A DNA stretch of 64,000 nucleotides from Candidatus Anderseniibacteriota bacterium (GCA_046350855.1 JAXLZM010000003.1:12311-76310), one strand, 5' to 3'. Shown: positions 3,461 to 50,025, counted from the first letter of the stretch. The notes: generated by a model not told the origin, from the sequence alone. Numbers and translations: made by a program.

Positions 3461-3461
3461 A

Positions 3462-5779: not shown

Positions 5780-5782
5780 TGG

Positions 5783-14370: not shown

Positions 14371-14433
14371 ACGAGTTACGCATTGCGAATTAGTATAGAA
14401 ATCGAACCAAAGATGGTAGTATTGTACTACTAT

Positions 14434-15120: not shown

Positions 15121-15187
15121 CTCAGCCTGGTTAGAGCGTACCCTTGACATGGGTAAGGCCCCAAGTTCAAATCTTGGTGCGCGCACC
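15111..15187 (+). tRNA. tRNA-Val (anticodon GAC), CCA encoded
   Basis: GCGCGCA-TAGCTCAGCCTGGTTAGAGC, anticodon stem TACCC/GGGTA with loop TTGACAT, T-arm CCAAGTTCAAATCTTGG. Confidence 0.85.
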
Positions 15188-15209
15188 ATAAAACCTAAAA
15201 AAGGGTAAA

Positions 15210-34400: not shown

Positions 34401-36842
34401 ATGTACACCTGTCCCATGCATCCCCAAATCCGGCAGAACCATCCGGGCACTTGTCCAATTTGCGGCATGGCGCTGGTACGTGAGGGGGCTGCGCAGACCA
34501 AACGCACGATCAAGGATTTTTTGCCGCTCATCGTGATTTTTGCGGTGATATTTGGGTTGACGGCACTGTTTTCTGGGCTGCATGAAGGCAACTCGGCGGC
34601 CGGTTTTGACTGGCTCTACGCCATGCGCTTTTTTGAAGCCTTTTTCTTTATTACCTTTAGCGCGTTTAAACTGCTTAATCTCAAAGGCTTTGTGGAGGCC
34701 TATCAAACGTATGACTTGCTCGCCAAGCGTAGCCGCGCGTACGCCTATGCCTACCCTTTTATCGAACTGCTCCTTGGTGCAGCATATTTATTTAACCAAT
34801 TTGTGCCGGTGGTGGCAGCTATCACACTGCTGCTCATGCTGATCGGGGCGATTGGAGTGGCTCGGGAGCTACGCAAAAAGCGTCAGATTAACTGCGCCTG
34901 CCTTGGTGTAGTATTTAAGTTACCAATGACCTGGGTGACCTTTATTGAAGACATCGTGATGGCCGTTATGGCAGCGATCATGCTGGTCGCGAGTATCGCG
35001 CCGACCCCGCGCGCCAGTGCCCAAACGGTCGAGGATCTGGTACGCGTGGCGGGCGCCAACCGCTACGAGACTTCGGTCGCGGTCTCTCAGCAGCTTTTTC
35101 CGGCGGCGGACTCGACCGATGGAGTGGTACTCAGTACTGGCCTCAACTTCGCGGACGCACTTGCCGGCGTCACACTCGCCCACCGGATCGATGCGCCACT
35201 GATGCTGATTGAGCCGCACCAAATCCCCGCTACCGTCTGGGATGAACTGCAACGGGTTCTGCCAGAAGACACCGAGCGCGTGGTGTATTTGCTGGGCGGT
35301 ACAAACGCAATCGATGCCAACCAAGAGGCGGTCATCCAAGACCACGGCTACGACGTGGTACGCATTGAGGGCTCGGATCGGATTAGCACGGCTCTTGCGC
35401 TCGCTGATGTTGAAAAAGCACAACGCGGCTCGGCGCCCGAGACGTACTACTTGGTCAATGGCTATCGTTTTCCGGATGCCCTCTCGATTGCACCGCGTGC
35501 CGCTATCGATGGTGATCAAGTCTTGCTAACCGGCTCGAGTAGCCTGGATAGTCGTACCCTCTCGTACCTCCTCAACAACCGTCCTCTCTCCGGCGTGGTC
35601 ACGATCATCGGCGGTGATGCCGTGGTGCCAGAGACCTTTGCCACGCAGTTGCGCGCCCAGGGCTTTACGGTAAATCGGATCTATGGCCCGACGCGCTACG
35701 CCACCTCCCGCGCGGTGGCTGACACGTTTGTGGACGTCAACGCGGGAGAACCCAGCACAATCGGTGTCGCCAGCGGTGAGAATTTTCCCGATGCGTTAGC
35801 GGCGGCGGTTCATCTAGCGGAGCAAAACGCGCCACTCCTGCTCGAGAAAAAAGATTTGTTCTTTACGGGCTGCATCGAGACCAGTGATTACATCCAGGAT
35901 CATGAGGCCACCATCGCCGACGGCTTTTTGTACGGCGGAACGGCGGTCTTTACGACCGAGGACGAGGACATGCTGGATGGCGCGATCCAAGGCACGGTTC
36001 CGTTTAACTGCGAGACGACTATTGCGGGCTGCCAAATCTTTCCCAGTGACAGCGTTTGGAACAGCAACATAAGCGCGTATCCTGTTCATCCGAACTCGGC
36101 TAATTACATCAACAGCATCATGTCCGGTCGGCAGTTTTTACATGCGGACTTTGGATCCAATCCTGACTATGGGATTCCGATCACGGTCGTGCCGAGCAGC
36201 CAGCCCCTCGTCCCGATGAGTTTTGATGTACCGAGCGAGAGCGATCCAGGTCCGTACCCGTTCCCGGCCAATGCTAAGGTAGAAGTGGGGAGCGACCATC
36301 ATGTCTTGGTGGTACAACAAGGCGCCTGTGATTTGTACGAAACCTTTGACTCAACCTTTACCAACCCAGGTTGGCATGCCTTCGCTGGTGCTAAATTTGA
36401 TTTGACCACGGGAACGCAGCGACCGGACTACTGGACTTCGGCCGACGCGGCGGGTCTGCCGATTATGCCGGGCCTGGTGCGTTATGACGAGGTTGCGAGT
36501 GGCTCGATCAATCACGCTCTGCGCTTTACGGTTAGCGAGAGCCAGCGCGCGTTTATTCACCCGGCTACGCACTATGCCAGTAGCGATACCAGTTCAAACG
36601 TACCGCCGATGGGGTTACGCCTCCGGCTCAAGGCCAGCTTTGATACCTCACCCTACTATGGCCAAGCCCGCGTGATCCTTGAGGCCCTCAAGAAGCACGG
36701 CATGTTTGTGGCCGACAATGGCAGCGACTGGTTTATTAGCGGCGAGACCGACAGCCGTTGGAACGATACCGATCTCGATCAACTCAAGGGTATCTCAGGC
36801 AACAATTTTGAGGCCATCGACACCGGGCCGCTGATTTTTTAG
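34401..36842 (+). CDS. Multidomain envelope protein: N-terminal heavy-metal-binding motif (YTCPMHP...PGTCPICGM), MauE/DoxX-like multi-TM domain, three or four CWB2 cell-wall-binding repeats, about 300-aa C-terminal domain of unknown function
   Basis: CPMHP/CPICGM twin motif as in copper-ATPase and CusB-associated HMBD, 4-5 TM helices, repeated GxNRYETS...ADAL modules of CWB2, and a C-terminal domain with no match. Confidence 0.6.
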   Translation: MYTCPMHPQIRQNHPGTCPICGMALVREGAAQTKRTIKDFLPLIVIFAVIFGLTALFSGLHEGNSAAGFDWLYAMRFFEAFFFITFSAFKLLNLKGFVEAYQTYDLLAKRSRAYAYAYPFIELLLGAAYLFNQFVPVVAAITLLLMLIGAIGVARELRKKRQINCACLGVVFKLPMTWVTFIEDIVMAVMAAIMLVASIAPTPRASAQTVEDLVRVAGANRYETSVAVSQQLFPAADSTDGVVLSTGLNFADALAGVTLAHRIDAPLMLIEPHQIPATVWDELQRVLPEDTERVVYLLGGTNAIDANQEAVIQDHGYDVVRIEGSDRISTALALADVEKAQRGSAPETYYLVNGYRFPDALSIAPRAAIDGDQVLLTGSSSLDSRTLSYLLNNRPLSGVVTIIGGDAVVPETFATQLRAQGFTVNRIYGPTRYATSRAVADTFVDVNAGEPSTIGVASGENFPDALAAAVHLAEQNAPLLLEKKDLFFTGCIETSDYIQDHEATIADGFLYGGTAVFTTEDEDMLDGAIQGTVPFNCETTIAGCQIFPSDSVWNSNISAYPVHPNSANYINSIMSGRQFLHADFGSNPDYGIPITVVPSSQPLVPMSFDVPSESDPGPYPFPANAKVEVGSDHHVLVVQQGACDLYETFDSTFTNPGWHAFAGAKFDLTTGTQRPDYWTSADAAGLPIMPGLVRYDEVASGSINHALRFTVSESQRAFIHPATHYASSDTSSNVPPMGLRLRLKASFDTSPYYGQARVILEALKKHGMFVADNGSDWFISGETDSRWNDTDLDQLKGISGNNFEAIDTGPLIF

Positions 36843-36896
36843 ATACGGAAAAAGGGCCACCAACGGTGATGGCCCTGCGCTCTCAGTTTAGAGCGG

Positions 36897-37826
36897 CTAG
36901 TGTTGCTCGATCGGATGAACCCGGACGACGTACCCATAGGTCGTGTTGTCGACCAGGATGGACGTCGGCTCGATCGCCTCGATGACGTGCGTCTTACTCA
37001 GCTCGGCAAGTCCCTCCGACAGAACAGTTGGGTACTCGCTGTGTTGTATCCACATGCGGAGAGTGTGCTCGTTATCCCAGTGCCACCAGTACTCGTTGAT
37101 TCGAACGATGTACAGATAGTCGGCTTGAACGGGGTCGATGACGTACCGCTGACCCGGGTCGCCTGCATCTTCGCTGGCTTGGAGCTTGTCATCGACGACC
37201 GCTGCAGGGTTCTTGCCCGCGGCCGCGGTCTCATAGCGGTTGCGCCCATTGATCGGAACACGCGCCACATCTTTGAGTCCGGCATGCGCTGGTACGTACA
37301 AGTGCGCGGCTTCCCACTTGCCCAAGGTGGCGCGACTGGCAAAACCCCAATAGACCCAGGGTGAACTTACGAACCCGCCCTTACGCACGGCAAAATGCAG
37401 ATGGGTCTTCCAGTGGCCATTATGATTTGAGTCGCCAACCCTACCGATGGTCTGTCCGCGATTAACCATTTGTCCTGGCCGAACCGCAAACGAGCGTGCA
37501 TCAATGTGTCCGTACAAACTCACTACGGCAGAGCCCGTTACATTTTTGTGTGCAATCAAAATCAAACCACCCCAATCGTGGTAGCCCGGAAAGTTTGCCG
37601 TTAAAACGACGGTGCCGTTAGCAGCCGCATGCACGGGGGTACCGGCAGGAGCCTCAACGTCTTCGCCCAAGTGCACCTCGCCCCCATACGGACTCCCAAA
37701 CTGAAACTCCGGATCAATGATCCAGCTTTGATCCAGTGGAAACTGCCAAACCCCAGCCAACGAGGCACTCGCCGTCAGCGCAAAAAACAAAAAAGCGAGC
37801 AGCAACAAAGGAAGTTTAGTTCTCAC
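36897..37826 (-). CDS. Secreted M23-family (LytM-like) peptidase
   Basis: Signal peptide, HxxxD (HLGEDV) and HxH (HLHF) M23 motifs. Confidence 0.7.
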   Translation of the reverse strand: MRTKLPLLLLAFLFFALTASASLAGVWQFPLDQSWIIDPEFQFGSPYGGEVHLGEDVEAPAGTPVHAAANGTVVLTANFPGYHDWGGLILIAHKNVTGSAVVSLYGHIDARSFAVRPGQMVNRGQTIGRVGDSNHNGHWKTHLHFAVRKGGFVSSPWVYWGFASRATLGKWEAAHLYVPAHAGLKDVARVPINGRNRYETAAAGKNPAAVVDDKLQASEDAGDPGQRYVIDPVQADYLYIVRINEYWWHWDNEHTLRMWIQHSEYPTVLSEGLAELSKTHVIEAIEPTSILVDNTTYGYVVRVHPIEQH

Positions 37827-37913
37827 AGCCAGTAGTATAGCGCAAAAAACGCCAAAAAACTTGACAAAGGCCTAAATTCGCGCTATTATGGTGATGTTCG
37901 CAAAAATACTTCT

Positions 37914-38648
37914 ATGCGCGTGACCTCAGACCAGCTCCACTCCCAAACGTCACGCGGTTTTGCGTTTGGATACCGCCTCGCCGTCATCGCAGTGGCGCTC
38001 TTTGGTATCGGCACGCTCCTCACCTGGACGAACCACTCTGCCAAAGCAGCCTTACTCCCCGCAGTCTCTGCAAAACAAGCCGGACACGACCAGCTCGAGC
38101 GACCAACCGTGCAGAGCGTCGCTAGTTCTGCCAAAAAAACAGAACTTGCTCAAGGTGCCGTTGCTACCGCCACCCTCAAAGCACGTGCGGTCACGGTTCA
38201 GTCAGAATTGGGTGTCCCAGAAGAACTCAAAGAAGGCATCGACGTCGACAAACCAGGCAACCCCGCTCCGCGCCAGCTGTTGCCCCACCGCAATGCCTAT
38301 AAATACATCGTGGTTGACCTCTCCGAACAACGTGTCTATGCAAAAATTGATGGGGTCACAGTCTTTACCGACTTAGTTTCTACCGGTTTAACCGGTCCAA
38401 CACTCATTGGACATTACAAGGTTATGACCAAGATCCCAGTCGGCTGTATGTCCGGCCCAGGGTATAGCCTCTGCAACATCCATTACATTATGTACTACGA
38501 TGGCGCAGGTCGTAGCTTGCATGAGGCCTGGTGGCACAATAACTTTGGACACCCTATGAGTCACGGCTGCGTCAACATGCGCTATGCCACCGCCAAGTGG
38601 TTCTACGAGTTTGCGCGGGTCGGTACGGACATCTACATCAAGCAGTAG
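37914..38648 (+). CDS. L,D-transpeptidase (YkuD domain), membrane-anchored
   Basis: Catalytic HGCVNM motif and YkuD fold features. Confidence 0.8.
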   Translation: MRVTSDQLHSQTSRGFAFGYRLAVIAVALFGIGTLLTWTNHSAKAALLPAVSAKQAGHDQLERPTVQSVASSAKKTELAQGAVATATLKARAVTVQSELGVPEELKEGIDVDKPGNPAPRQLLPHRNAYKYIVVDLSEQRVYAKIDGVTVFTDLVSTGLTGPTLIGHYKVMTKIPVGCMSGPGYSLCNIHYIMYYDGAGRSLHEAWWHNNFGHPMSHGCVNMRYATAKWFYEFARVGTDIYIKQ

Positions 38649-38683
38649 CACCAACCGCGCGAGGTACGCTACACTGTGGGCAT

Positions 38684-40108
38684 ATGAAACTTCCCACACG
38701 TTTTTTAGTTAGTGCGCTTTTGGCGCTTGCACTCGTTGTTGTCGCCCAACCGGCAGCTGCAGCACAAACCAAGACCGTCAAAGTTGCGGCAGATACCACT
38801 GCGCCTGGTTCACCCGTGGACATTGGGGCCTTTCCGACAACTAAAACCGCGAGTGACCAGTTCACCATTTTTTGGGAGAACCCGACCGACCCCTCGGACA
38901 TTGAGGCGGCCTGGTACAAGCTCGACAGCGCCCCCACCTCCAATAGCGACGGTACGCGCGTGGCGGATGTGACCGATCCCTCGACCCCAACTATCGGTTT
39001 GATCCCCGCTCTCACCACCGGTGGCCGAACCACCCGCACCCTCTACCTCTGGCTCGAGGATGGAGCCGCCAACCTGGACTACACCACCAATGTGAGCGTG
39101 ACCCTGCGACCCGAGGGCACGACCGACAAGATTATCCGCGTGGCAGGAAATGACCGCTACGAAACCGCCGTCGCGACCAGTAAAAAAATCTTTCCGGTAA
39201 ATCAGACGGCCGATGCGGTGTTGCTTGCCAACGGTACCTCGACGGCTGACGCCCTGGCTGGGGTCCCACTCGGCTTTACCGCCAACGGCCCAATCTTATT
39301 GATCAAGGCAGGCGAGATTCCAAGTGCGGTCTACGCGGAGTTACAACGCGTTTTGCCCGCGGCCGGTCGAGTCTACATTTTGGGCGGTACGGCCGTGATC
39401 AATCAGGCCCAGGAGGATTTTTTGGTCAACGCCGGCTACAACGTCAAACGGCTGGCGGGAGCCAACCGCATGATCACCTCGGTCCAAATCATGGATGAAC
39501 TCGATCTCCTGCGTGGGACCAACCCGGATCATATCTATCTAGTCAACGGCTTTGCCCCAGCGGATGCCCTCTCGATCGCGCCGCTAGCAGCCTACCTCCA
39601 AGATGGTATCGCCCTGACCGAGTCAGGTGATCTAACTCAGGTGGTGCGTGACTACGCCAATACGCACCTGAGCAGCCTCACGAGCGTGACGCTGATTGGC
39701 GGTACCGCGGTACTCCCTAGTTCGATCTCTACCCTCTTTAGCAGTGCCGGCTATACGGTCGATCGCATCGGCGGAGTCAACCGGTATGACACCTCGCGTC
39801 TTATTGCTGACAAATACGTGGATGATGTTCCCCTGGCACCCCCCGGTGTGGCGATCGCGAGTGGCACCGCTCTCGCGGATGCTTTACCCGCCGGAGTACA
39901 CGCCGCGGCGCAGCTCTACCCAATGCTCCTGGTGCCTAAAGATGTTACGTCGGCAACGTGTGGTCGCACGGTCGACTTTTTACAGGACTACGCCAGTCGT
40001 ATCCAGGGTGGCTATCTCTACGGTGGTGACGCGGTCGTGACCGGAACGAGCGAGAGCCTGATGGAGCAAATGATCGACGGATCACTCAACTTTGGCTGTC
40101 CCGTCTAA
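38684..40108 (+). CDS. Secreted protein with three CWB2 cell-wall-binding repeats
   Basis: Signal peptide plus three GNDRYETA...ADALAG repeats. Start set at MKLPTRF. Confidence 0.65.
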   Translation: MKLPTRFLVSALLALALVVVAQPAAAAQTKTVKVAADTTAPGSPVDIGAFPTTKTASDQFTIFWENPTDPSDIEAAWYKLDSAPTSNSDGTRVADVTDPSTPTIGLIPALTTGGRTTRTLYLWLEDGAANLDYTTNVSVTLRPEGTTDKIIRVAGNDRYETAVATSKKIFPVNQTADAVLLANGTSTADALAGVPLGFTANGPILLIKAGEIPSAVYAELQRVLPAAGRVYILGGTAVINQAQEDFLVNAGYNVKRLAGANRMITSVQIMDELDLLRGTNPDHIYLVNGFAPADALSIAPLAAYLQDGIALTESGDLTQVVRDYANTHLSSLTSVTLIGGTAVLPSSISTLFSSAGYTVDRIGGVNRYDTSRLIADKYVDDVPLAPPGVAIASGTALADALPAGVHAAAQLYPMLLVPKDVTSATCGRTVDFLQDYASRIQGGYLYGGDAVVTGTSESLMEQMIDGSLNFGCPV

Positions 40109-40129
40109 GGCTTAGCTGCTCCGGACTCC

Positions 40130-41176
40130 ATGCAGCGCTCAGTCAGGTTACCTCGGGATGAACACGCCCACCGTGTCCAGTATGAGTGGTGGTACGCGCA
40201 TGGCTACCTAGAAAACGAGGCTGGTCGGCGCTACGGCTTTATGCTGTGCTTTTTTAAATTTGATGCGGCCACGATCAAGCGGTTTTTTCCGCAGTTCAAA
40301 CCGTATCCGGCAAAGATGCTCTACCAAATGACGCTCGGGCTCACCGACGTGACGGGGCAAACCCACCATTTTGACGAACATACCTTTGTGCCCTGGCCGG
40401 GACATGTCGGGGCCAGGCGTTTTGGCAAGCTCAACGTTTTCTTTGGACACAATCACCTCCGGCGTGTGGCACCCAACCGTTTTAGTTTGAGCATGCAGCA
40501 TCACCACCGCCACCTACGACTGCATTTTTATGATCGTAAAGGACCGGTGCTGCATGGGACCCGAGGCGTCTTAAGCTTTCCTAAATCAGGTTCGACCGTC
40601 TACTACTCCCATCCCCGCCTAACGGTGCATGGCGCTTTTGAAGCAGCAGGACCGGAGGGCAAAAAAGAAGCTGAGTTTGTGCGCGGCTCGGGCTGGATCG
40701 ATCACCAGTGGGGTGACTTTGCGGCCGACCAGCCTTTTTCGTTTTGGAACTGGACGGGTATCCAACTCGATGACGGCAGCGAGCTGATGGTCTACGAGCC
40801 ATTTTTGCCAGACGGCACAAGTGCTGGTTGTAAAGTGACCTGGTTTGGCCCTAAGGGCGAGCGCAAAGTCACCAAGGGGATCTGGAAGCCCGGCAGCCAT
40901 TGGACCAGTCCCAAATCAAAAATCACCTACCCCATCGACCACCAGATCAGTGTGCCAGCCCTTGATCTCGAGCTGACCCTCCGTGCGGACGTGCGCGATC
41001 AGGAGATGTATTCGTCCTTCTTTAAATACTGGGAGGGCAGCTGCTCCGTGATCGGTAAACGCGCCCACAAACACATAACCGGTAAGTCCTATGTGGAGCT
41101 TACCGGTTATGATCGGTTGTCGCCTCAGGGGCGACGCAACCGTTTGGGCCTTAAGCGGCAGGCAGTTAGGCCTTAG
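40130..41176 (+). CDS. AttH/CrtC-like lipocalin-domain protein (predicted secreted hydrolase family)
   Basis: N-terminal P.DEHAH....EWWY..G.L motif typical of CrtC/AttH. Confidence 0.55.
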   Translation: MQRSVRLPRDEHAHRVQYEWWYAHGYLENEAGRRYGFMLCFFKFDAATIKRFFPQFKPYPAKMLYQMTLGLTDVTGQTHHFDEHTFVPWPGHVGARRFGKLNVFFGHNHLRRVAPNRFSLSMQHHHRHLRLHFYDRKGPVLHGTRGVLSFPKSGSTVYYSHPRLTVHGAFEAAGPEGKKEAEFVRGSGWIDHQWGDFAADQPFSFWNWTGIQLDDGSELMVYEPFLPDGTSAGCKVTWFGPKGERKVTKGIWKPGSHWTSPKSKITYPIDHQISVPALDLELTLRADVRDQEMYSSFFKYWEGSCSVIGKRAHKHITGKSYVELTGYDRLSPQGRRNRLGLKRQAVRP

Positions 41177-42070: not shown

Positions 42071-42099
42071 ACTTGCGTTACGTTATATGGCTAAATCCC

Positions 42100-42174
42100 T
42101 GGAGCGGGAGACGGGATTCGCACCCGCGACCTCTTCCTTGGCAAGGAAGCGTTCTGCTCCTGAACTACTCCCGC
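42100..42174 (-). tRNA. tRNA-Gly (anticodon GCC), CCA encoded
   Basis: The reverse complement gives GCGGGAG acceptor, anticodon stem CTTCC/GGAAG with loop TTGCCAA, T-arm GCGGGTGCGAATCCCGTC. Confidence 0.85.
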
Positions 42175-42243
42175 AAAAAGCTCGCTGTCGAGCTGGATTC
42201 TGTCCAGTTCGCCCAGTCTAAACTGCAAAAAGAGGCTTGTCTA

Positions 42244-43785
42244 CTAGTCTTTCTCAAGATCTTTTAGATCGGTGTCGGTGATCTCAAGTTGGTCCAAAAC
42301 CCATACATGGCGCTCGTTAGTTGGGTCAAATTTACCCAGGTTGAACCGATGTGCCTCTTCTGGCTTTTTGCCGATTAACTGCCAAATAGCCATGTTGCCT
42401 TCTCGATAAATGTAATCGCGGGTAAAGACCGCACCGGGGGTTTTGCCGTCGGTTCCTCTAAAGGTACGGACGGTGTTATCCCAGCCAACATTGGTGCCCA
42501 TTTCTGTGGCTTTGCGTATTTCCATTCCTTGGCTGATCCGGCGCAAAGTTGCATAGCGCTTGTTGATTTCGAAGAGCTCTCTAAAGTTTCTGGGCTTTCC
42601 GTCTATGCCAAGCGCCATACCAACCCCAAGATGGCCTGACGGAATTCCAAAGTCGACCCGGCCTTCATAGGCTTGTTCTGCTGCAATTGCGCCGCCCTCT
42701 TCTCCGCGAATATACCGATCAAGACCCGCTACTCCGAGCAGGCGCAATCTGCTGCGCTCACCACGCTCTCTGCGTAAGGGATGGGTAATAACTTCATGCA
42801 ATACGTAGGGCACTAAATCATTTATTTTTACGGGGTCGGAGGCCTGCTCAGGAACATAGACCTCTTTTTTATCCTGGCTGACTGCATAGCCTTTTCTGTT
42901 TGGATCGATAACGACTTTCCAACCAACTTTATCTAGACTAATGGTTTTAAGCGCGCTCTCGAACTCCTGGGCGACTTGCTCTGAGGTTAAGTCAAGTTGT
43001 TCTGGATGTTGCTTATTTCGCGGCAATTTAGTCTTCTCTACCCCGTATTTTTGCTCAATAGTCTCGATTGTTTCCTTAAACTGCGTACGATTTACTTTTT
43101 CGTAGTAGTCAATGGTCTCTTTAGGTGGGTACAAAAATTGCGTCTCACTCTGGCTTTCACTTGGGAGAAGTGCAAAAAACTCATCAGCCATTTTTTGAAC
43201 TTCTGGATTGTCAGGATGCAATTCACGTGCTTTTTCGGCTTCTTGTCTCACACCGTTAACGGTTGCAAAAAACATATCCTTATCTGGTTTACCAAAAACA
43301 TATTCGGAATAGCGCATAAACCGTCGGCTTTTACCTTCAGCCGTTGCACGAAGCATGCGGATGCTGGCGATCGATTCATTAATGCGCCAAAGATACGCCA
43401 TACGCATAACTAACTCTGGATCCTGCCTAGTCTCTTTTTTCCAAAGATCCGCCATCTTTCTACCAATATCTTTTTCGTTGAGTTGTAGCTCCTTCTTAAG
43501 GCTGAGCAACGTGTCTTCTTGTTGTTGTAATTGAGTCAGCTTCTCTGGAGTCAATTTGGGATAGTCGAGTTCTGGACTCTCGATTTCACCCTTTAAGAAA
43601 GCCTCCCGCTGGGAAGCGATTTTTTGCGGCGTATTCTCGATTGAGCTAATTACTTCAACCCCAAGATAGGGCTGAACACGATCATAGAGCTCCTTATCTA
43701 GCTGAGTTTTTTCCTGCTTTGGAGACTCCGCTGGAAGACCCAGCTCGTACGGTGAAGGACCGCGTTCAACGGAAAACATGGGCAA
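42244..43785 (-). CDS. DUF1704 / QEGLA-motif family protein (MATCAP-like putative HExxxH metallopeptidase), paralog A, AT-richer
   Basis: AYLWRINES, FGKPD, LHEVITHPLRRE, LDRYIRGEEGGAIAAEQAY and GKFDPTNERHVWVLD, all shared with the neighbouring paralog. Confidence 0.5.
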   Translation of the reverse strand: MPMFSVERGPSPYELGLPAESPKQEKTQLDKELYDRVQPYLGVEVISSIENTPQKIASQREAFLKGEIESPELDYPKLTPEKLTQLQQQEDTLLSLKKELQLNEKDIGRKMADLWKKETRQDPELVMRMAYLWRINESIASIRMLRATAEGKSRRFMRYSEYVFGKPDKDMFFATVNGVRQEAEKARELHPDNPEVQKMADEFFALLPSESQSETQFLYPPKETIDYYEKVNRTQFKETIETIEQKYGVEKTKLPRNKQHPEQLDLTSEQVAQEFESALKTISLDKVGWKVVIDPNRKGYAVSQDKKEVYVPEQASDPVKINDLVPYVLHEVITHPLRRERGERSRLRLLGVAGLDRYIRGEEGGAIAAEQAYEGRVDFGIPSGHLGVGMALGIDGKPRNFRELFEINKRYATLRRISQGMEIRKATEMGTNVGWDNTVRTFRGTDGKTPGAVFTRDYIYREGNMAIWQLIGKKPEEAHRFNLGKFDPTNERHVWVLDQLEITDTDLKDLEKD

Positions 43786-43911
43786 AGTATACCGTACCAG
43801 CCAGGTTGACCAAATGACATTTTTATGCTATTTTGCGGGGCTCTTTTGCCCTTCGACAATCCGTAAAAATCGTATTCAATCTGGTACGCAACCCATGAGG
43901 ACAAGCAAGAT

Positions 43912-45354
43912 ATGAGTGAACCAACGCACGTGGACTCAGAACTGTACGATCGGCTCAAGGAGCCCTTCGAGATGGACGCTCTTACCTATATCCAGGTCGA
44001 CGCAAAGTTGTTCCTGGCACAACGCCAGGACTTTTACGACGGCAACCTGCGCAACCCCGTCTTTACGTACAGCGGCTTGACCAAGGAAGTCTTGGCCAAG
44101 ATGAACCAGTTCGAGATGTTGCTTTTGGAAGCTCGCAAGGAACTGCGTGGAACGGATCGTTCCTACGCCCGCATCATGCAGGGCGGCTGGAACTCCATCA
44201 CGCGATCTCTGGAGACTGGTCGTCGTTTTGCCTACCTCTGGCGTATCAATGAGGCGCTCGCCAAGGTGCGACTGATCAAGGCCTGCGCCTCTGGCAAAAC
44301 CAAGCGCGCTCAACGCTACTCGATCTTCATGTTCGGCAAACCGGACTACAAGATGTATCGCGCAAGCGTGGCCGAGGTTCGTGCTGAGGTGCGTCGCTGG
44401 CAAGAGGCGCAGCCGGAGAACGAGGATCTCAAGCGCGTTGGCAACGAGTTGCTGACTCTCCTGCCCGATATCGGGCCGGAGGAACAGTACGAGTTGCCCA
44501 AGCCCAACCTGATCGCCAAACTCACGCAGTACGTGCGTGAGCAGTTCAAGTCGGTCATCGAATTCTATGAGAACCGCTACGGTGCGGACAAGACGCAGCG
44601 CGGTCTCGAGAACCTCGGCGACCTACCGTTTGTGACTAAGGAGGAAGCAATCGTCGGGTTCCAGTTCGCCATGCAGGTCTTCGCTCTGTTCAAGTTCGGG
44701 TTCAACCTTATCGTGACCTGGGCCAAGCGCGGCTATTCCGTCTCCCAAAAGGAGCTGGCAGTGTTCATTCCGGCCGATCCTGACTGCGGCAAAATCAAGT
44801 GCAACGAACTGGTGCGCTGGACGCTCCATGAGGTCTGCGTACACCCGCTTAGACGGTTGCGCGGACATCTCAGCAAGCTGCGACTTATGGAGTTTGGCCT
44901 CGATCGTTACGAGGCTGGAGAGGAAGGTTCGGCAATTGCAATCGAAGATGCCTACACCGGAGAAGTGCTGGGCTATGGTTTTGCGACCGGACCAGTCGCT
45001 GTCTCTCTCGCTCTCGGACTGGATGGTACGCCGCGCGACTTTCGGGACTTGTTCGAGATCATGTCGTTGTACGCGATCTGTCGTCGACTAGGGCCTCAAA
45101 AGCTCCCGCTTGAGAAGGCCACTCATGATGGCAAAGTCCTTGCCTTCGACAACACGATGCGGACCTTCCGGAGCGGTGACCCCTCCATTCCTGGTCGCGT
45201 CTTTACCAGGGACATCATCTACCGGAGAAGCAACCGTGCTTTTTGGGAGACGATGGAGTCGCATCCGGAGCGACTCGAGCACTTACTGGACGGCAAGTAC
45301 GATCTCGCCAATGAGCGACACATGTGGATTCTCGAATGCATCGAGGCTGCATGA
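43912..45354 (+). CDS. DUF1704 / QEGLA-motif family protein (MATCAP-like putative HExxxH metallopeptidase), paralog B, GC-richer
   Basis: FAYLWRINEA, FGKPD, LHEVCVHPLRR, LDRYEAGEEGSAIAIEDAY and GKYDLANERHMWILE. Confidence 0.5.
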   Translation: MSEPTHVDSELYDRLKEPFEMDALTYIQVDAKLFLAQRQDFYDGNLRNPVFTYSGLTKEVLAKMNQFEMLLLEARKELRGTDRSYARIMQGGWNSITRSLETGRRFAYLWRINEALAKVRLIKACASGKTKRAQRYSIFMFGKPDYKMYRASVAEVRAEVRRWQEAQPENEDLKRVGNELLTLLPDIGPEEQYELPKPNLIAKLTQYVREQFKSVIEFYENRYGADKTQRGLENLGDLPFVTKEEAIVGFQFAMQVFALFKFGFNLIVTWAKRGYSVSQKELAVFIPADPDCGKIKCNELVRWTLHEVCVHPLRRLRGHLSKLRLMEFGLDRYEAGEEGSAIAIEDAYTGEVLGYGFATGPVAVSLALGLDGTPRDFRDLFEIMSLYAICRRLGPQKLPLEKATHDGKVLAFDNTMRTFRSGDPSIPGRVFTRDIIYRRSNRAFWETMESHPERLEHLLDGKYDLANERHMWILECIEAA

Positions 45355-45425
45355 ACTACAACGGCCCCACTCTTCGAAAGAAGAGTCGGGGCCTTTTTCT
45401 TTTGGGGCACTTTGTTAGCCCCTAT

Positions 45426-46892
45426 TTATGCTAGCCGGTAAATCTCGAACGCATCCCCCACGCCCTTAAGCGAGACGGTGTCTTTTTTGGCCTTGAGTTT
45501 GGCGTCGGACATAACATCCCGTACACGCGGAGCAACATAGACTTGCGGTGAGACGACGATCTCGCCCGCGTTAGCCGCGTTTTGGACGCGAGCCGCGATG
45601 TTGACGGTCTGACCAAAGTAATCCAGGCGCTCATTGAGTTCGACCGCGATACAGGGACCAGTATGAATACCGATTTTGAGGACGAGGTCCTCGTCCATCC
45701 CCACACTTTGGATTTCGCGGTTCATCCGAGCAGCGGCCTCCAGAGCGGCAGCGGGATCCGAGAAGCTGGCCATAATGGCATCGCCGATAGTTTTGACCAC
45801 GGCTCCACCGGACATTTTGACGATCTTGCGTAGGAGGGCAAAGTGCTCACGGACGATCCCGTAGGCTTTAAAGTCGCCAATACGACGGTACATCTCGGTC
45901 GACCCCTTAAGGTCAGTAAATAAGAGGGTCAGGTTTTTGAACTCCAACCCATTACCGGACGGGATACTCTCCGAGCGAAACAGGTCCCGAAAAGTCTGGG
46001 TCGTGACCAGGCGCTTACCATTGAGATAGGGCAAAAAATCGGGCTTGGGTTTTTTACCGGGCTTACCAAAGCTGTCTTCCATTAACTTTTGTGGATCGCG
46101 GATCAGGCCGTAGGCGCGATCGCGACCGACGCGGTTACGGATGGTGAAGTGTTGTTGGCCCGGAGCCAACTTGACCTCATCGGGGATAAAGGCGCCATCG
46201 ACATGCTCCACCACTACCGCATGCTGCTCACTCTTAGGCGTCACATCGATCTCCAGATTAGCGTGCTCCAAGGGAGAACCGAGCGAGTAGTGGCCGGGGG
46301 TGAGCTTGGTGTCGATGGCAGTGGCACCGGGTTTGAGCTTACCGGTCAGGATGGCGCCTTGTTCGATAATCTCTTTTTTGCGCTCGAGATCGGTGACGCT
46401 GGTCGAAAAAAAGACCGTCATGACGTCGCGGATGGTGGTCAGCTCGGTCGGAGTATGAAAACGAATGTGACGCACGGAGGGCGAGACGGTAAAGGCCACC
46501 TCCACGTTATCGTCGATGTTGCTCTGCACCGGCAAGCGGCAGAGGCCACAGTTCATGTTTTGGTTGAGGGCTTTGAGACCACCGGCCGTGGTGATAAAGC
46601 CGCCACAGAGCGGACAGAGTACGCCCCAGTTAAAGTCGAGAAGTCCGGCGTGCGCGGCGTGCAAAAAAAGATCGATCCCGACCGACTCGGGGATCTTGTG
46701 GGCCGCGGCATAGCGCAGTGGGCTCATCCTAAAGAGCTCTTCGTCTGAGGCGTTATCTAAAAACTCGGCAAAGTCGTCGATGACCCGAGACTCAAATCCA
46801 CCGTTGGCTCGGACCGCGTCCAAGCGGGCCATGCGCGCAGAGAGCGCCATAGCCTCGGCAACGCGTTCTCGATAGTTGGCAGGTTTTGGCAT
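45426..46892 (-). CDS. Class III adenylate/guanylate cyclase with N-terminal Cys-rich (zinc-ribbon-like) sensor domain
   Basis: C-terminal cyclase core (FTDLKGSTEMYRR...VKTIGDAIMASF), N-terminal CPLCGG...CGLC. Confidence 0.75.
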   Translation of the reverse strand: MPKPANYRERVAEAMALSARMARLDAVRANGGFESRVIDDFAEFLDNASDEELFRMSPLRYAAAHKIPESVGIDLFLHAAHAGLLDFNWGVLCPLCGGFITTAGGLKALNQNMNCGLCRLPVQSNIDDNVEVAFTVSPSVRHIRFHTPTELTTIRDVMTVFFSTSVTDLERKKEIIEQGAILTGKLKPGATAIDTKLTPGHYSLGSPLEHANLEIDVTPKSEQHAVVVEHVDGAFIPDEVKLAPGQQHFTIRNRVGRDRAYGLIRDPQKLMEDSFGKPGKKPKPDFLPYLNGKRLVTTQTFRDLFRSESIPSGNGLEFKNLTLLFTDLKGSTEMYRRIGDFKAYGIVREHFALLRKIVKMSGGAVVKTIGDAIMASFSDPAAALEAAARMNREIQSVGMDEDLVLKIGIHTGPCIAVELNERLDYFGQTVNIAARVQNAANAGEIVVSPQVYVAPRVRDVMSDAKLKAKKDTVSLKGVGDAFEIYRLA

Positions 46893-47037
46893 AACCGATT
46901 AGTTGTACAGCATTTTGAGCAACTATTCAACCGGTGCGGCTCACATTGTTGTTACGCCAGATACAAAAAGGCCCCGGTTTACACCGGGGCCTTTAGTTCA
47001 CCCTGCCTTAGGTGGGACAGAGTGGCAGACTAGACGC

Positions 47038-47430
47038 TTACGCGCTTACCGCCGAGGACGAACCATTCTTACCCAAGAAAGCGGCAAGAAGTGCCCAGAT
47101 ACCGATCGCCAAGTGCAGGATCGAGTCGGCTGGGTTCTCAAGGTTTGCACCCAAGAACGCCGGGGTAAAGATCGAGTAGATACCGACCAATACGCCGATA
47201 ATTCCGAGCAAGACCACGACCCACTTTTGGACCATTGCTGGTACTGCAAAAGCGAGGATCAAGGCGACAACACCCAAAATGGTGTGGGCCCAGTTCTCAC
47301 CGTTATCAAACCACCAGGCATCGCCAAAGATGGATTGATCTGGGGTGGGACCAATGATCCCAAAGAACCCGATGACTCCGACCAACAGCAATACGATGCC
47401 GCCGATCAGGAGGAACTGTTTAGCGTTCAT
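47038..47430 (-). CDS. Hypothetical membrane protein (four TM helices)
   Basis: 130-aa hydrophobic ORF. Confidence 0.4.
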   Translation of the reverse strand: MNAKQFLLIGGIVLLLVGVIGFFGIIGPTPDQSIFGDAWWFDNGENWAHTILGVVALILAFAVPAMVQKWVVVLLGIIGVLVGIYSIFTPAFLGANLENPADSILHLAIGIWALLAAFLGKNGSSSAVSA

Positions 47431-47559
47431 ATAGGTAGAAAGCTTAATGGATTAGGGGCCAAGGCGGCCGTTAGGGCATTTATAGCACATCGCTTCCACA
47501 AATGGAGTGGCCTTTTCCACATCAGCTGCCGGTTGAACCGGGGCCGTCGGACAGCCCCG

Positions 47560-47634
47560 TGGAGCGGGAGACGGGATTCGAACCCGCGACCTTCTCCTTG
47601 GGAAGGAGACATTCTACCCCTGAACTACTCCCGC
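47560..47634 (-). tRNA. tRNA-Gly (anticodon CCC), CCA encoded
   Basis: Near-duplicate of tRNA-Gly(GCC). Anticodon stem TCTCC/GGAGA with loop TTCCCAA. Confidence 0.85.
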
Positions 47635-47647
47635 CAGTTTCTCCCTA

Positions 47648-47939
47648 TGGTGCCGAGGGCCAGGATCGAACTGGCGACGCCAGCCTCTTCCATACTTGGA
47701 CTATCTCATCATCCTTGCCTATTTGTTCAGACAAGGAGCTGGGCGCTTGTGTAGGAGTATTGTTGGGACTCACCTACTAGTCTCTACGCCTTCCGGTGGA
47801 ATTTAACCCGTACCGGCTTGGTTCGGGATTGGCAAACTTACGCTTGCTTTTCCCCGAGTTCACCCAGTTTTTAAAGATTCATTACTGAACCATGCCCCAA
47901 AGAGTCTAGGGCTGCGCTCTACCACTGAGCTACCTCGGC
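47648..47939 (-). tRNA. tRNA-Phe (anticodon GAA) interrupted in the anticodon loop, after U33, by a 217-nt group I intron; exons 47908..47939 and 47648..47690
   Basis: 5' exon GCCGAGGTAGCTCAGTGGTAGAGCGCAGCCCT, 3' exon GAAGAGGCTGGCGTCGCCAGTTCGATCCTGGCCCTCGGCACCA. The spliced product folds into a canonical cloverleaf with loop CUGAAGA. Confidence 0.8.
47691..47907 (-). mobile_element. Group I self-splicing intron (subgroup IC3-like, no ORF) in tRNA-Phe
   Basis: P1 pairs exon GCCCU with intron GGGGC, with a U.G wobble at the 5' splice site. P10 pairs intron UCUUU with 3' exon GAAGA. The R element GUAGAGACUAGUAGG and S element GAUGAGAUAGUCC (P7) resemble the Azoarcus and Anabaena tRNA introns. 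Omega-G comes before the 3' splice site. Confidence 0.8.
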
Positions 47940-47983: not shown

Positions 47984-48060
47984 TGGTGGGCACTGTAGGG
48001 ATCGAACCTACGACCTCGTCAGTGTAAATGACGCGCTCTAACCAGCTGAGCTAAGTGCCC
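47984..48060 (-). tRNA. tRNA-Val (anticodon TAC), CCA encoded
   Basis: The reverse complement gives GGGCACT-TAGCTCAGCTGGTTAGAGC, anticodon stem CGTCA/TGACG with loop TTTACAC, T-arm GTAGGTTCGATCCCTAC. Confidence 0.85.
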
Positions 48061-48719
48061 AAAGATGCTTTAGTTACACCCTCTATCCAACCAAGAATAG
48101 ACAATAATAGCCGAGTGTCACAGATAACGATATCGAAGGTACCATATGGTAACGAATCTCGCTTACCCTTGCTGTTGCGGTTGCGTTTTCGATATGTTTT
48201 GTAAAACTGTTTTAGCGGAATACCAGAAACTTTTGACCAGTAGTGTTCTGCGAACCGATGGTCAAGGTGACCATGGATATGAATATGTCCTCTGAACTTT
48301 TTTTCTGGAACAGCACAAATCTCTTTAAAAAACCGCATCATTATTTGAACACTTTTTGGATCTCCATTGGAGAACCCAACTAAACCGTGATTTGTCTTTC
48401 TGCCCTCTCCCCAATACAAACCAATGCCCAGAATCCACAGATCACGCCGCGAAATCCGCTTGATCGATGCTGCCGCTATACTAGTAGTAACCGCACGTTT
48501 TACCATTTCATGTCTGAGCCTCGTTTGACGCCTCGATTCAATAACCTCAATGCTTGTATGACGTGCTTTAAGCCTATTAACTTGTTTTGGAGTTAGAGAT
48601 ACGTCGCGGACCCAAAGACTTGCTGTACTTTTTGAAATAGCAAGGGCTCGCGTAATTTGTTTCAAGGAGTATCCCTTTGAGCGTAAAATTCTTGCCCTAC
48701 GTCGCTCGATAAGCTTCAT
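48051..48719 (-). CDS. Putative homing endonuclease-like protein (HTH plus single LAGLIDADG-like motif ILGIGLYWGEGRK), paralog of 14434..15120; last 10 nt overlap tRNA-Val(TAC), stop is TAG of the tRNA D-stem
   Basis: Paralogous to 14434..15120. AT-rich by eye. AT-rich promoter-like upstream region with TATTATGAT. Confidence 0.5.
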   Translation of the reverse strand: MKLIERRRARILRSKGYSLKQITRALAISKSTASLWVRDVSLTPKQVNRLKARHTSIEVIESRRQTRLRHEMVKRAVTTSIAAASIKRISRRDLWILGIGLYWGEGRKTNHGLVGFSNGDPKSVQIMMRFFKEICAVPEKKFRGHIHIHGHLDHRFAEHYWSKVSGIPLKQFYKTYRKRNRNSKGKRDSLPYGTFDIVICDTRLLLSILGWIEGVTKASLGT

Positions 48720-49287: not shown

Positions 49288-49373
49288 TGGTGCGCGAGGG
49301 GGGATTCGAACCCCCAAGCCTTGCGGCACATGCACCTCAAGCATGCGTGTCTAGCCAGTTGCACCACTCGCGC
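49288..49373 (-). tRNA. tRNA-Leu (anticodon GAG), long variable arm, CCA encoded
   Basis: The reverse complement gives GCGCGAG-TG-GTGCAACTGGCTAGACAC, anticodon stem CATGC/GCATG with loop TTGAGGT, a long variable arm and T-arm GGGGGTTCGAATCCCCC. Confidence 0.8.
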
Positions 49374-50025
49374 AGTAACCAGCAGGGTACGGATCTTCCC
49401 AGAGTATTGCAAGCGCCTTCTGTTTTTTTCTTGCCAGATGAGGAGAGGCGCTATCTTGATAGAAAGCTGTCAGGATTTTGCGTGCCTCGTGTTTAGAAAA
49501 CTTGGCCTGATAGGCCCCCGAACCACTTGTAACATGGCCCTTGGCACCAATAGTTTGTTGTGTTGCTTTAACCAGCCACTTTGCAAATTGAGCACTAGCC
49601 GTTGCGAAAGCTACATAGAACATAAAACTGCTCCGCCAACGCGGGTCCCAATATGCATAGACAGTTCCATCACCGTCGAATAGGCCCCTTAAAAAGTCAG
49701 CAAAAAAGTTCGGTGGAATACTCAACTTACCTAGCGTTCTAGATTTTCTAGGAGTTAATCCAATCGAAAGTAGAAAACGATAAAAAGTAACATCTCCAAA
49801 CTGGAGCTGATAGCCATTGCTACGTCCTGTAAAACCACTTTTCTTTTTGCTTACCCGATTCTTAATCGCCAAACACTTTTTTAAGGTTTGGATAAGATCA
49901 AGATTATTAGATGTAAAAAATAGATGGCGACCGTCTGGAGAAAGACAACCATCGCTCGCCATAAGGCCAACGACATAGGCCATATTCGAGCTCCATTTAC
50001 AGTTTATCCGACCTAGTGGTCTCAT
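49351..50025 (-). CDS. LAGLIDADG homing endonuclease (two motifs: VVGLMASDGCL and LRGLFDGDGTV); last 23 nt overlap tRNA-Leu(GAG), stop is the TAG of the tRNA D-loop
   Basis: Classical double-motif LAGLIDADG. The C-terminal codons (ASGATG, stop) are read from the tRNA sequence GCGCGAGTGGTGCAACTGGCTAG. AT-rich by eye. Confidence 0.85.
   Translation of the reverse strand: MRPLGRINCKWSSNMAYVVGLMASDGCLSPDGRHLFFTSNNLDLIQTLKKCLAIKNRVSKKKSGFTGRSNGYQLQFGDVTFYRFLLSIGLTPRKSRTLGKLSIPPNFFADFLRGLFDGDGTVYAYWDPRWRSSFMFYVAFATASAQFAKWLVKATQQTIGAKGHVTSGSGAYQAKFSKHEARKILTAFYQDSASPHLARKKQKALAILWEDPYPAGYCASGATG

Follow-up and report, generated by a model that had tools for sequence, protein, structure and literature searches.

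Divergently transcribed paralogs of the MATCAP/DUF1704 metallopeptidase family in a tRNA-Gly-bordered variable slot of an Andersenbacteria-like CPR genome

The human homologues of the DUF1704 proteins are established tubulin-tail carboxypeptidases. The HExxxH and EEG motifs are required for the carboxypeptidase activity of TMCP1/2 (PMC10499314). Together these motifs constitute an experimentally supported active site, in which EEG provides the third ligand in TMCP1/MATCAP, and the E281A, E329A, and E364A mutants are dead (PMC10499314). No characterised bacterial member of the DUF1704/QEGLA/PF08014 group was found in the searchable literature; the literature matches to PF08014 were Plasmodium gene identifiers. 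The bacterial proteins include those of the equivalog family TIGR02421, the "flavohemoglobin expression-modulating QEGLA motif protein". Their genes often lie beside ATP-grasp ligases, as a preliminary description of the DNA studied here had stated, and an ATP-grasp/7TM operon (7TM_transglut, an ATP-grasp gene of the ATPgrasp_ST/RimK type, and DUF1704) was present at approximately 30 of 79 other CPR DUF1704 loci. The window, by which we mean the whole stretch of 64,000 nucleotides analysed, from a Candidatus Andersenbacteria MAG, is different: tblastn and profile HMMs made from the canonical operon detected no ATP-grasp ligase, 7TM_transglut, or PBP1A homologue within it, in line with the earlier remark that a ligase is missing. 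Similarly, no ATP-grasp or 7TM_transglut Pfam family was found among the called genes of the related loci described below. A partner ligase may be encoded elsewhere in the genome, beyond the 64 kb examined.

The window instead carries two head-to-head DUF1704 genes, referred to here as copy A and copy B, and a nucleotidyl cyclase gene, all situated in a variable slot between a DUF4383-like gene and a tRNA-Gly(GCC) gene. The features of this region are as follows:

42100..42174, minus strand: tRNA-Gly(GCC), conserved right border of the slot, 69 bp downstream of copy A (ARAGORN)
42244..43779, minus strand: copy A, predicted 511-aa metallocarboxypeptidase of the MATCAP/DUF1704 family, conservative paralog
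43780..43911, no strand assigned: divergent intergenic region between A and B, 132 bp (sequence)
43806-43834, plus strand: sigma-70-like site upstream of B (promoter scan, consensus match only)
43912..45354, plus strand: copy B, predicted 480-aa metallocarboxypeptidase of the MATCAP/DUF1704 family, derived, faster-evolving B-type paralog
45372..45407, plus strand: terminator-like hairpin within the 71 bp separating the convergent genes for B and the cyclase
45426..46892, minus strand: DUF5939 plus class III nucleotidyl cyclase, 488 aa (Pfam DUF5939, 3e-41; Guanylate_cyc, PF00211, 5.7e-23)
46967..46994, minus strand: strong terminator-like hairpin, 12 pairs, in the DUF4383/cyclase spacer
47038..47430, minus strand: DUF4383-like membrane protein, 130 aa, conserved left border of the slot (weak Pfam DUF4383 match)
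47560..47634, minus strand: tRNA-Gly(CCC), just outside the DUF4383 gene (ARAGORN)

Both open reading frames of the pair proposed in the preliminary description were recovered, and BLASTP of A against B gave 196/484 identities (40%, E=9e-120), far beyond chance. The motifs that had been listed as common to the two proteins (AYLWRINE, FGKPD, HEVITH/HEVCVH, LDRY..GEEG.AIA.E.AY, and GK(F/Y)D..NERH.W(V/I)L(D/E)) were all seen in both translations. Copy A most likely begins with the ATG of position 43779 and not with the TTG of position 43785, and the resulting 511-aa protein is 100% identical to NCBI protein U0517_03005 from a Candidatus Andersenbacteria MAG. Copy A has a disordered N-terminal tail bearing a GPSPYELG motif, and copy B lacks this tail. 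Neither protein has a hydrophobic segment resembling a signal peptide or membrane anchor (the Kyte-Doolittle maximum over 19 residues is 0.89 in A and 1.58 in B), and each begins with a hydrophilic N-terminus. The count of sigma-70-like sites was not above the expectation from shuffled sequence.

Family membership was supported by Pfam, as the whole-protein PF08014 scores of A (42.6 bits, E=4.9e-11) and B (28.9 bits, E=7.4e-7) were both above the gathering threshold of 27 bits, with the best-matching stretch covering only profile positions 264-325 of 365. The significant match of A is limited to part of the catalytic domain, toward its C-terminal end; that of B is likewise partial. A and B are not TIGR02421 equivalogs, since their scores of 36.0 and 31.1 bits fall far below the NCBIfam cut-off of 338.65. 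A match of copy B to WD40/G-beta proteins, from a single-sequence phmmer search of the PDB, was spurious and was superseded by the family profile and fold comparison. The predicted active sites are at the following positions:

42781..42798, minus strand: copy A HEVITH (H328, E329, H333), HExxxH metal-binding/catalytic motif, which aligns to HEIGTH of human MATCAP (translation)
42694..42702, minus strand: copy A EEG (E360, E361, G362), predicted third metal ligand, counterpart of EEG/QEGLA
44827..44844, plus strand: copy B HEVCVH (H306, E307, H311), HExxxH motif (translation)
44920..44928, plus strand: copy B EEG (E337, E338, G339), predicted third metal ligand (translation)

The H, E, and H of HExxxH are invariant in 99 homologues, and the EE of EEG is at least 90% conserved among them. 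A profile of these homologues matched MATCAP (7z5g, E=2.7e-6) with HEIGTH and EEG aligned. The alignment of HExxxH draws on this family profile together with the predicted structures. These data support the reading of HExxxH as the probable metal site, which had been put forward as a candidate zinc site, and that of GEEG.A (GEEGGA, residues 359-364 of A; GEEGSA, residues 336-341 of B) as the likely counterpart of QEGLA/EEG. Structure prediction gave both proteins the MATCAP catalytic-domain fold (AF2 pLDDT of 96.0 and 93.1 for the two copies, the B model having pLDDT 96). Our best explanation, which as a whole we consider probable, is that A and B are soluble, full-length metallocarboxypeptidases that belong to the gluzincin family MATCAP/DUF1704 (PF08014) and are catalytically intact. 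If so, a divalent metal would be bound through H328/H333/E361 in A and H306/H311/E338 in B, E329 or E307 would act as the general base, and each enzyme would remove the C-terminal residue(s) of a cytoplasmic peptide or protein tail.

The product of the gene at 45426..46892 is probably an adenylate cyclase. A class III cyclase had been reported to adjoin the pair, and the PF00211 match, at a distance of 71 bp from B, upheld this. In addition to the catalytic-domain match, the protein has a metal-binding Asp pair, a Lys/Asp specificity pair, and an Asn/Arg transition-state pair in the motifs FTDLKGST (325), KTIGDAIMA (367), and LDYFGQTVNIAARV (423), where the roles of individual residues are presumed from class III cyclases in general. 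Its relatives at 54-82% identity include CPR-annotated genomes and MAGs that share the synteny of the block, and those at 47-52% form a large group, Myxococcota wherever a name is given. As it is convergent with B and the spacer holds a hairpin, the two genes look separately transcribed in the window.

All insertion-bearing relatives of A and B (see below) with visible context occupy this same syntenic slot in Andersenbacteria-like CPR genomes, within a collinear block of approximately 15 kb (AP endonuclease, UDG, tRNAs, DUF4383, slot, tRNA-Gly, AttH, CWB2, YkuD). In ten related contigs the number of peptidase genes in the slot was 0, 1, or 2, the DUF5939 cyclase could be present or missing, and gene order differed. 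The DUF4383-like protein shares 73-85% identity with its counterpart at the slot border of L002, L083, L089, L090, and L093, and tRNA-Gly(GCC) also borders the slot in L083, L089, L091, L093, and L095, this border being partial in L002 and L090. An ORF at 46903-47754 (+) that overlaps the DUF4383 gene was judged to be spurious. Contigs L003 and L091 have 96-97.5% nucleotide identity in their flanks; L003 carries 1634 bp more, bearing the B-type gene P0002, and the A-position genes of the two diverge after codon 13. Between contigs with flanks this similar, a B-type gene has been gained or lost as a one-gene segment of 1.6 kb. L003 also has a perfect 12-bp hairpin at the place equivalent to the B/cyclase hairpin. 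No mobile-element hallmarks (direct or inverted repeats, target-site duplications) were found around the B cassette and slot in L003, L002, or the window, this search recovering only the two tRNA-Gly genes, whose regions in the window form a 97-nt direct repeat of 80% identity, and terminator hairpins.

Two shared insertions assign A and B to a very rare DUF1704 subfamily. Both insertions were present only in A, B, P0001, P0002, P0089, L091X, L093Y, L095Z, P0223, and P0234 and were absent from 79/79 of the other DUF1704 loci from the genome scan, for which the query was an alignment of nine closer sequences. An exhaustive HMM search of 1.84 billion representatives gave scores of 786, 775, 730, and 490 bits followed by a gap to 347 bits or less, and a metagenome scan with the subfamily alignment identified no further subfamily locus besides L003. 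Members of the main CPR clade share 35-42% identity with A. Neighbour-joining (NJ) recovered A+(P0002,(P0001,B)) with 96-100% bootstrap support, in a tree that is distance-based only and whose topology could be distorted by the long P-type and B-type branches. The pair is not a recent duplication, in agreement with the preliminary description; they are old paralogs. At amino-acid identities of 36-58%, synonymous sites are saturated. Orthology of A to the P-types (P0089, L091X) was considered because of its matching position, orientation, and N-terminal motif (GPSPxE[LM]G, common to A and the same-position genes of relatives). This was rejected because A grouped with P-types in 0/200 NJ replicates, one such test being imperfect in that it left out P0234. 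A is the conservative copy, having kept the ancestral position, orientation, and N-terminal motif, and B is a member of a faster-evolving, GC3-rich B-type lineage. This history may reflect duplication with differential loss, or lateral exchange among related strains.

Several other explanations of the two copies and their neighbour were weighed against this one. The preliminary description had noted that A is AT-richer than B, which proved correct (GC 0.468 and GC3 0.463 for A; GC 0.568 and GC3 0.715 for B), and had seen in this a suggestion that A is a xenolog, which was not established. A transfer of A from another CPR lineage, with insertion or gene replacement beside tRNA-Gly(GCC) and a resident B, would be consistent with the GC3 of A relative to 43 ordinary window ORFs (0.634, sd 0.038; z=-4.5, compared with z=+2.1 for B), with the tRNA gene only 69 bp away, and with the homing-endonuclease-like character (HNH, LAGLIDADG) of other AT-rich tRNA-adjoining ORFs in the window. 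In addition, the closest relative of A among 5.8 billion clusters is only 41-42% identical, and A falls outside the P-type clade that occupies its position in the closest relative, L091. However, GC3 is similarly low in slot residents of two relatives, the P-type genes of L091 (0.42, neighbours 0.65-0.69) and of L093 (0.43, neighbours 0.44-0.54), as well as in a 45-codon fragment in L003 (0.49), so that low GC3 is poor evidence for recent transfer. A also carries both subfamily insertions and the slot-specific GPSP motif, and any donor would for this reason be a close relative with the same slot gene; its grouping is with the B-types, and where contigs with near-identical flanks differ by one gene, that gene is of the GC-rich B-type. 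We regard a xenologous origin of A as unlikely. Far less credible, and in our view highly improbable, is that relaxed constraint on B, as a redundant duplicate, is taking it toward a pseudo-enzyme or loss. B has kept 58/81 family-conserved positions (A, 75/81), its branch is longer (Kimura distance to the main clade of 1.70, compared with 1.27 for A), and B-type genes are missing from L091, L089, and L090. Nevertheless, the ORF is intact, all three B-types have kept both HExxxH and EEG, the structural model is very confident, and the B-type clade persists in three lineages and is the sole copy in L002. The B-types moreover have several derived substitutions in common (T to V in HExxTH, G349E, P486L), which point to a maintained new state and not to random decay. 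Residues replaced only in B-types, where the family is otherwise conserved, suggest that these enzymes prefer a different substrate.

The recurrence of the cyclase has also to be explained. A DUF1704 gene adjoins it in 5/10 related contigs, and the adjacency is seen in the window, L003, L091, L093, and L095, so the arrangement noted in the preliminary description does recur elsewhere, albeit at 0/79 other DUF1704 loci within 10 kb. The signalling-linked module raised there as possible remains speculation because the block is syntenic, each gene also occurs alone, the other loci lack the cyclase, and transcription appears separate. It is unlikely, in our estimation, that the subfamily and the DUF5939 adenylate cyclase are a functional pair, in which, for example, the peptidase would trim the C-terminal end of the cyclase or of another protein in the cAMP pathway, or would itself be under cAMP control, the window then showing an ancestral DUF1704-cyclase operon in rearranged form. 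In favour of this, the two genes run in the same direction in L095 (11-bp gap) and L093 (60-bp gap), an operon-like arrangement. These lineages are deep, their cyclases sharing just 57-63% identity with that of the window, and no subfamily member with visible context has the ATP-grasp operon of the main clade, so that partner loss coincides with a new neighbourhood. Against this, the whole block is collinear in these genomes, and the adjacency is thus no more conserved than that of unrelated neighbours. The cyclase is alone in the slot in L089 and L090, as is the peptidase in L002 and L083 (cyclase ~11 kb away), the cyclase precedes the peptidase in L091 and follows it in L093 and L095, and in the window it faces B across a hairpin. 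One Myxococcota DUF5939 cyclase locus that was inspected had no DUF1704 gene. Somewhat less likely again is that the insertion-bearing subfamily swapped its ancestral ATP-grasp ligase for the cyclase, forming an undescribed CPR module for cAMP-linked C-terminal-tail processing or genetic conflict, with the window pair representing substrate-specificity diversification in a hypervariable slot. We give even less weight to the slot as a conflict-type hypervariable locus (defence, counter-defence, host interaction), with the peptidase paralogs as diversifying effectors and the cyclase as a signal generator, loosely as in Pycsar or CBASS. Slot peptidases share 27-45% identity across genomes in which the flanking proteins share 48-85%, copy number varies from 0 to 2, gene content differs between contigs 96% identical in their flanks, with the A-position gene diverging after codon 13, and PADLOC gave weak PycC matches for the cyclase (best E=5.8e-13). 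These matches reflect only the generic class III cyclase fold, however, and PADLOC returned nothing for A, B, the DUF4383 protein, or a 183-aa neighbour. No effector with a nucleotide-sensing domain was found, nor any transposase, integrase, or flanking repeats around the cassette; A is conservative rather than diversifying, and CPR proteins are in general fast-evolving. The cyclase often shares the slot but is dispensable there. Functional coupling to the peptidases is speculative, and the association is most likely only syntenic, in which case the cyclase of the window would be a separately transcribed neighbour inherited along with the block.

The locus represents a new subfamily rather than a demonstrated signalling module. 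It defines a rare branch of DUF1704 that has lost the usual ATP-grasp context and resides in a tRNA-Gly-bordered hotspot of gene turnover. A conservative and a derived copy with apparently intact active sites make a natural pair for studying substrate specificity in this fold, and the related contigs provide a small, concrete set of genomes for testing the meaning of the recurring DUF5939 neighbour. If the association is only syntenic, the region is a case of ordinary, well-resolved paralog turnover in a CPR genome.

Among known systems, Pycsar shares a class III-type cyclase fold with the window cyclase, but here there is no cyclic-nucleotide-binding effector, and the window cyclase has a large DUF5939 N-terminal domain. 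The cyclase has the two-domain architecture of DUF5939-class III homologues, and in the relatives at 54-82% identity that share block synteny it is in or near the DUF4383/tRNA-Gly slot, whereas the single myxobacterial locus inspected had a hybrid histidine kinase neighbour. Of the peptidases, M32 (Taq-type) carboxypeptidases, which have HExxH and not HExxxH, and DUF885 proteins gave A and B much lower structural scores than MATCAP did and had no sequence-level match. The bacterial TIGR02421 proteins belong to the same Pfam family and have the catalytic motifs in common, but A and B have GEEG(G/S)A instead of QEGLA, plus the two subfamily-specific insertions, and stand in a tRNA-flanked variable slot without the ATP-grasp, 7TM_transglut, YdjC/GT/GNAT, and PBP1A neighbours of TIGR02421 operons. 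Compared with human MATCAP/TMCP1 (KIAA0895L) and TMCP2 (KIAA0895) (PDB 7Z5G, 7Z6S), A and B show just 16-18% sequence identity, have an extra N-terminal helical region of ~200 residues, and come from a CPR bacterium without the tubulin substrate; their predicted active sites carry the same HExxxH and EEG motifs, aligned by profile, and their carboxypeptidase activity is a prediction.

Copies A and B, the head-to-head pair of DUF1704/MATCAP genes, belong to a rare, insertion-bearing subfamily no longer found in the ATP-grasp operon and lie in a gene-turnover hotspot adjoining tRNA-Gly(GCC). The genes concerned were as follows.

42244-43785, minus strand: copy A ORF
43912-45354, plus strand: copy B ORF
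45426-46892, minus strand, convergent with copy B: cyclase gene, with DUF5939 (3e-41) and a class III cyclase domain (5.7e-23)
47038-47430, minus strand: DUF4383-like membrane protein (130 aa), 73-85% identical to the gene at the same border in five related contigs

Alignment of the two products over 484 residues gave 40% identity (E=9e-120), and all the motifs listed in the preliminary description were found in both translations. The likeliest start of copy A is the ATG at 43779, and the resulting 511-aa product matches hypothetical protein U0517_03005 from a Candidatus Andersenbacteria MAG with 100% identity, which places the window in a candidate-phyla-radiation (CPR) bacterium. The family originally proposed for the pair was upheld, as both proteins exceeded the gathering threshold of 27 bits for PF08014 (MATCAP, formerly DUF1704), with 42.6 bits for A and 28.9 bits for B; the match was restricted to a C-terminal stretch in each. 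Scores against the NCBIfam QEGLA equivalog (36 and 31 bits) fell far short of its cut-off of 338.65. A plus-strand ORF after the cyclase (46903-47754, 283 aa) was rejected as spurious, the real gene there being the minus-strand DUF4383 gene.

Nine further contigs were reached via the peptidase and via the better-conserved cyclase. All had a common order, which on the left was AP endonuclease, UDG, tRNA-Leu(GAG), tRNA-Val(TAC), tRNA-Gly(CCC) and DUF4383, followed by a variable slot, and on the right tRNA-Gly(GCC), a small ORF, an AttH/CrtC lipocalin, CW_binding_2 and YkuD. Read from DUF4383 towards tRNA-Gly(GCC), the slots contained the following.

Window: cyclase, copy B (inverted), copy A
L003: cyclase, P0002 (a B-type peptidase, inverted), start of the A-position gene
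L091: cyclase, 76 bp, peptidase L091X
L093: peptidase L093Y, 60 bp, cyclase
L095: peptidase L095Z, 11 bp, cyclase
L083: peptidase P0089 only, the cyclase being ~11 kb off
L002: P0001 alone (B-type, inverted), flanked by DUF4383 and a partial tRNA-Gly(GCC)
L089 and L090: cyclase only

The two tRNA-Gly genes, GCC and CCC, formed a 97-nt direct repeat (80% identical; 42097-42193 and 47557-47653) enclosing the whole variable region of A, B, cyclase and DUF4383, and this repeat is a possible recombination substrate. The 64 kb held 12 tRNA genes, scattered singly rather than clustered, several of which were synteny anchors common to relatives. Beyond tRNA-Gly(GCC) was a cell-envelope cluster (34401-41176).

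Within 34401-41176: 813-aa protein with HMBD, MauE and three CWB2 repeats
36897-37826, minus strand: M23 peptidase
37914-38648: YkuD L,D-transpeptidase
38597-40108: CWB2 protein
40130-41176: AttH/CrtC double-lipocalin protein

The YkuD-CWB2-AttH core order was retained in L083, L089, L091 and L095, and in L093 without AttH; M23/CWB2 proteins also turned up near some related loci.

Comparison of L003 and L091 revealed turnover between close relatives. Their cyclases had 96% nucleotide identity over 847 nt, and a 118-nt stretch, comprising the upstream region and codons 1-13 of the A-position gene, was 97.5% identical. Between these stretches L003 had 1634 bp extra, on which P0002 was accompanied by a terminator hairpin and an upstream region. 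A search around this B-type cassette found neither repeats nor mobility genes. Past codon 13, the alignment of the two A-position genes ended. The abrupt divergence (L003 1-80 vs L091 1298-1377), in two contigs 96-97% identical in the cyclase and promoter region, suggests an allelic replacement whose breakpoint falls a short way into the A-position peptidase gene. More widely, the slot peptidases diverged far more than their flanking genes. Copy A was 30% identical to L091X, vs 77-79% for the cyclase, 64% for AttH and 68% for the small ORF of the same loci, and 29-30% identical to P0089, vs 77.5% for DUF4383, 73.5% for UDG and 60% for CWB2. Similarly, B was 36% identical to P0002 (cyclase, 80%) and 58% to P0001 (DUF4383, 80%).

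The preliminary description had found copy A to be AT-richer than copy B and proposed that it was a xenolog. The contrast was real: A had GC 0.468 and GC3 0.463 and B had GC 0.568 and GC3 0.715, which relative to 43 ordinary window ORFs (GC3 0.634, sd 0.038) corresponded to z=-4.5 and z=+2.1. However, the composition gave no support to a xenologous origin, as low GC3 recurred among A-position genes in four contigs: the window, L091 (0.42 vs neighbours at 0.65-0.69), L093 (0.43 vs 0.44-0.54) and L003 (0.49, from a 45-codon fragment only). B-type GC3 exceeded that of neighbours in all three genomes bearing such genes, with copy B at 0.715 vs the ordinary-ORF mean of 0.634 (adjacent cyclase, 0.675), P0002 in L003 at 0.774 vs 0.66 for its cyclase, and P0001 in L002 at 0.828 vs 0.61-0.68. 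The slot-gene GC3 of L083 (0.54) and L095 (0.81) agreed with their own genomes. Since the contrast recurs across contigs, it is a property of two lineages and not a sign of recent transfer of A.

Other AT-rich ORFs were present in the window. A 353-aa plus-strand ORF (59895-60956) had a GC3 of 0.469, near that of copy A, with no Pfam match and no adjoining tRNA, and four ORFs (GC3 0.32-0.39) each abutted a tRNA gene.

10723-11241, minus strand: adjoins tRNA-Leu 10658-10745
14383-15120, plus strand: adjoins tRNA-Val 15111-15188; no Pfam match
48051-48719, minus strand: adjoins tRNA-Val 47984-48060
49351-50025, minus strand: adjoins tRNA-Leu 49288-49373

The three on the minus strand resemble stand-alone genes for homing endonucleases or HTH proteins (HNH, HTH/terminase-like fold, LAGLIDADG). 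A LAGLIDADG ORF (5245-5898) likewise adjoined the tRNA-Leu(GAG) of L095.

The subfamily was defined by two insertions, lengthening one segment in A and B to 33-38 residues (vs ~16 elsewhere) and another to 40-47 residues (vs ~30 elsewhere). Both were common to A, B, P0001, P0002, P0089, P0223, P0234, L091X, L093Y and L095Z, and absent from every one of the 79 DUF1704 loci that a one-genome-per-species scan returned from CPR bacteria plus a small number of DPANN archaea. Database relatives numbered 97 for A (the best 41-42% identical; CPR phylum wherever the source named the organism) and five for B. When 1.84 billion representatives were searched exhaustively with a profile, 1948 family clusters were obtained at E<=1e-3; the top four scored 786, 775, 730 and 490 bits and the rest, after a sharp drop, <=347. 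The metagenome scan yielded no new subfamily locus.

Neighbour-joining trees (Kimura distances, 200 bootstraps) grouped A with the B-types as A+(P0002,(P0001,B)) at 96-100% bootstrap; the B-type clade had 100% where tested, as did a distinct P-type clade (P0089, P0223, L093Y, P0234, L091X). Copy A kept the P-type position, orientation and N-terminal GPSPxE[LM]G motif. It was also the most conservative member: of 81 positions with conservation of 90% or more in the main CPR clade it kept 75, vs 58 in B and 54-60 in the other members tested (P0001, P0002, P0089 and L091X). The 40% identity and the presence of B-types in three lineages indicate that the A-B pair is old. From the distance trees and fragmentary contigs, the distribution needs either ancient duplication and then recurrent loss, or slot genes exchanged between related strains.

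The cyclase had the class III signature motifs, including a Lys/Asp pair of the kind found in adenylate cyclases. Relatives 54-82% identical to it included CPR-annotated genomes and MAGs with the same block synteny, and those at ~50% were a very large set whose named members were Myxococcota; no DUF1704 gene was near the cyclase at the one myxobacterial locus inspected. The suggested signalling link to the peptidases was neither disproved nor established. Five of the 10 contigs, from four independent lineages, had the cyclase next to a slot peptidase, and in two deep lineages the arrangement resembled an operon. However, all of the block is collinear, the cyclase and the peptidase each also occurred without the other, and we consider functional coupling unlikely. 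In the window, consensus matches placed terminator-like hairpins between DUF4383 and cyclase and between cyclase and B, and, within the 132-bp spacer of the divergent pair, a promoter-like site upstream of B.

The association with ATP-grasp ligases given in the preliminary description was correct for the main clade. Clustering of the ORFs flanking the 79 loci, followed by Pfam, identified a recurrent operon in ~30 of them, comprising 7TM_transglut, ATPgrasp_ST (sometimes with a Zn_protease tail), a RimK-like ATP-grasp, YdjC, GT1 or GNAT, DUF1704, a further ATP-grasp and PBP1A. As the preliminary description had stated, no ligase accompanied the pair: none of the ATP-grasp, 7TM_transglut or PBP1A operon genes was detected anywhere in the 64-kb window. 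None of the 79 loci had a cyclase within 10 kb of DUF1704 or a divergent DUF1704 pair. The tandem same-strand DUF1704 genes of L065, a Kaiserbacteria genome (9935-11323 and 11350-12654), are an independent duplication within the main clade. Six loci (L022, L007, L032, L038, L048 and L054) had a conserved string from ~-6 kb to +5 kb of the DUF1704 gene, in the order YebC-like, RuvC-like (both labelled by sequence inspection, not Pfam), 7TM_transglut, ATPgrasp_ST with Zn_protease tail, RimK-like ATP-grasp, YdjC/GT1/GNAT, DUF1704, ATP-grasp and PBP1A. With PBP1A as a neighbour, the canonical system may have a role connected with the cell wall. In L091, a YdjC-family gene (3163-3981) lay directly beyond tRNA-Gly(GCC), adjoining the slot peptidase; YdjC also belongs to the canonical operon (L022), and the L091 gene may be left over from the former operon context.

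Neither A nor B had a hydrophobic segment or signal-like N-terminus. Their AlphaFold2 models were confident predictions (A, pLDDT 93.1 and pTM 0.90, with disorder confined to residues 1-19; B, pLDDT 96.0 and pTM 0.93). Across as many as 99 aligned homologues, HExxxH had no variation at its H, E and H, and conservation of the EEG glutamate was at least 90%. A and B are thus intact cytosolic MATCAP-type metallocarboxypeptidases, presumably active. The family profile matched human MATCAP (7z5g; E=2.7e-6), pairing HEIGTH with HEIGTH, EEGvA with EEGLA and an RTFRG..F(T/S)KD.(I/V)Y block. In TMCP1/MATCAP and TMCP2 the metal site is formed by HExxxH and the EEG motif, and carboxypeptidase activity is abolished by E281A, E329A and E364A (PMC10499314).
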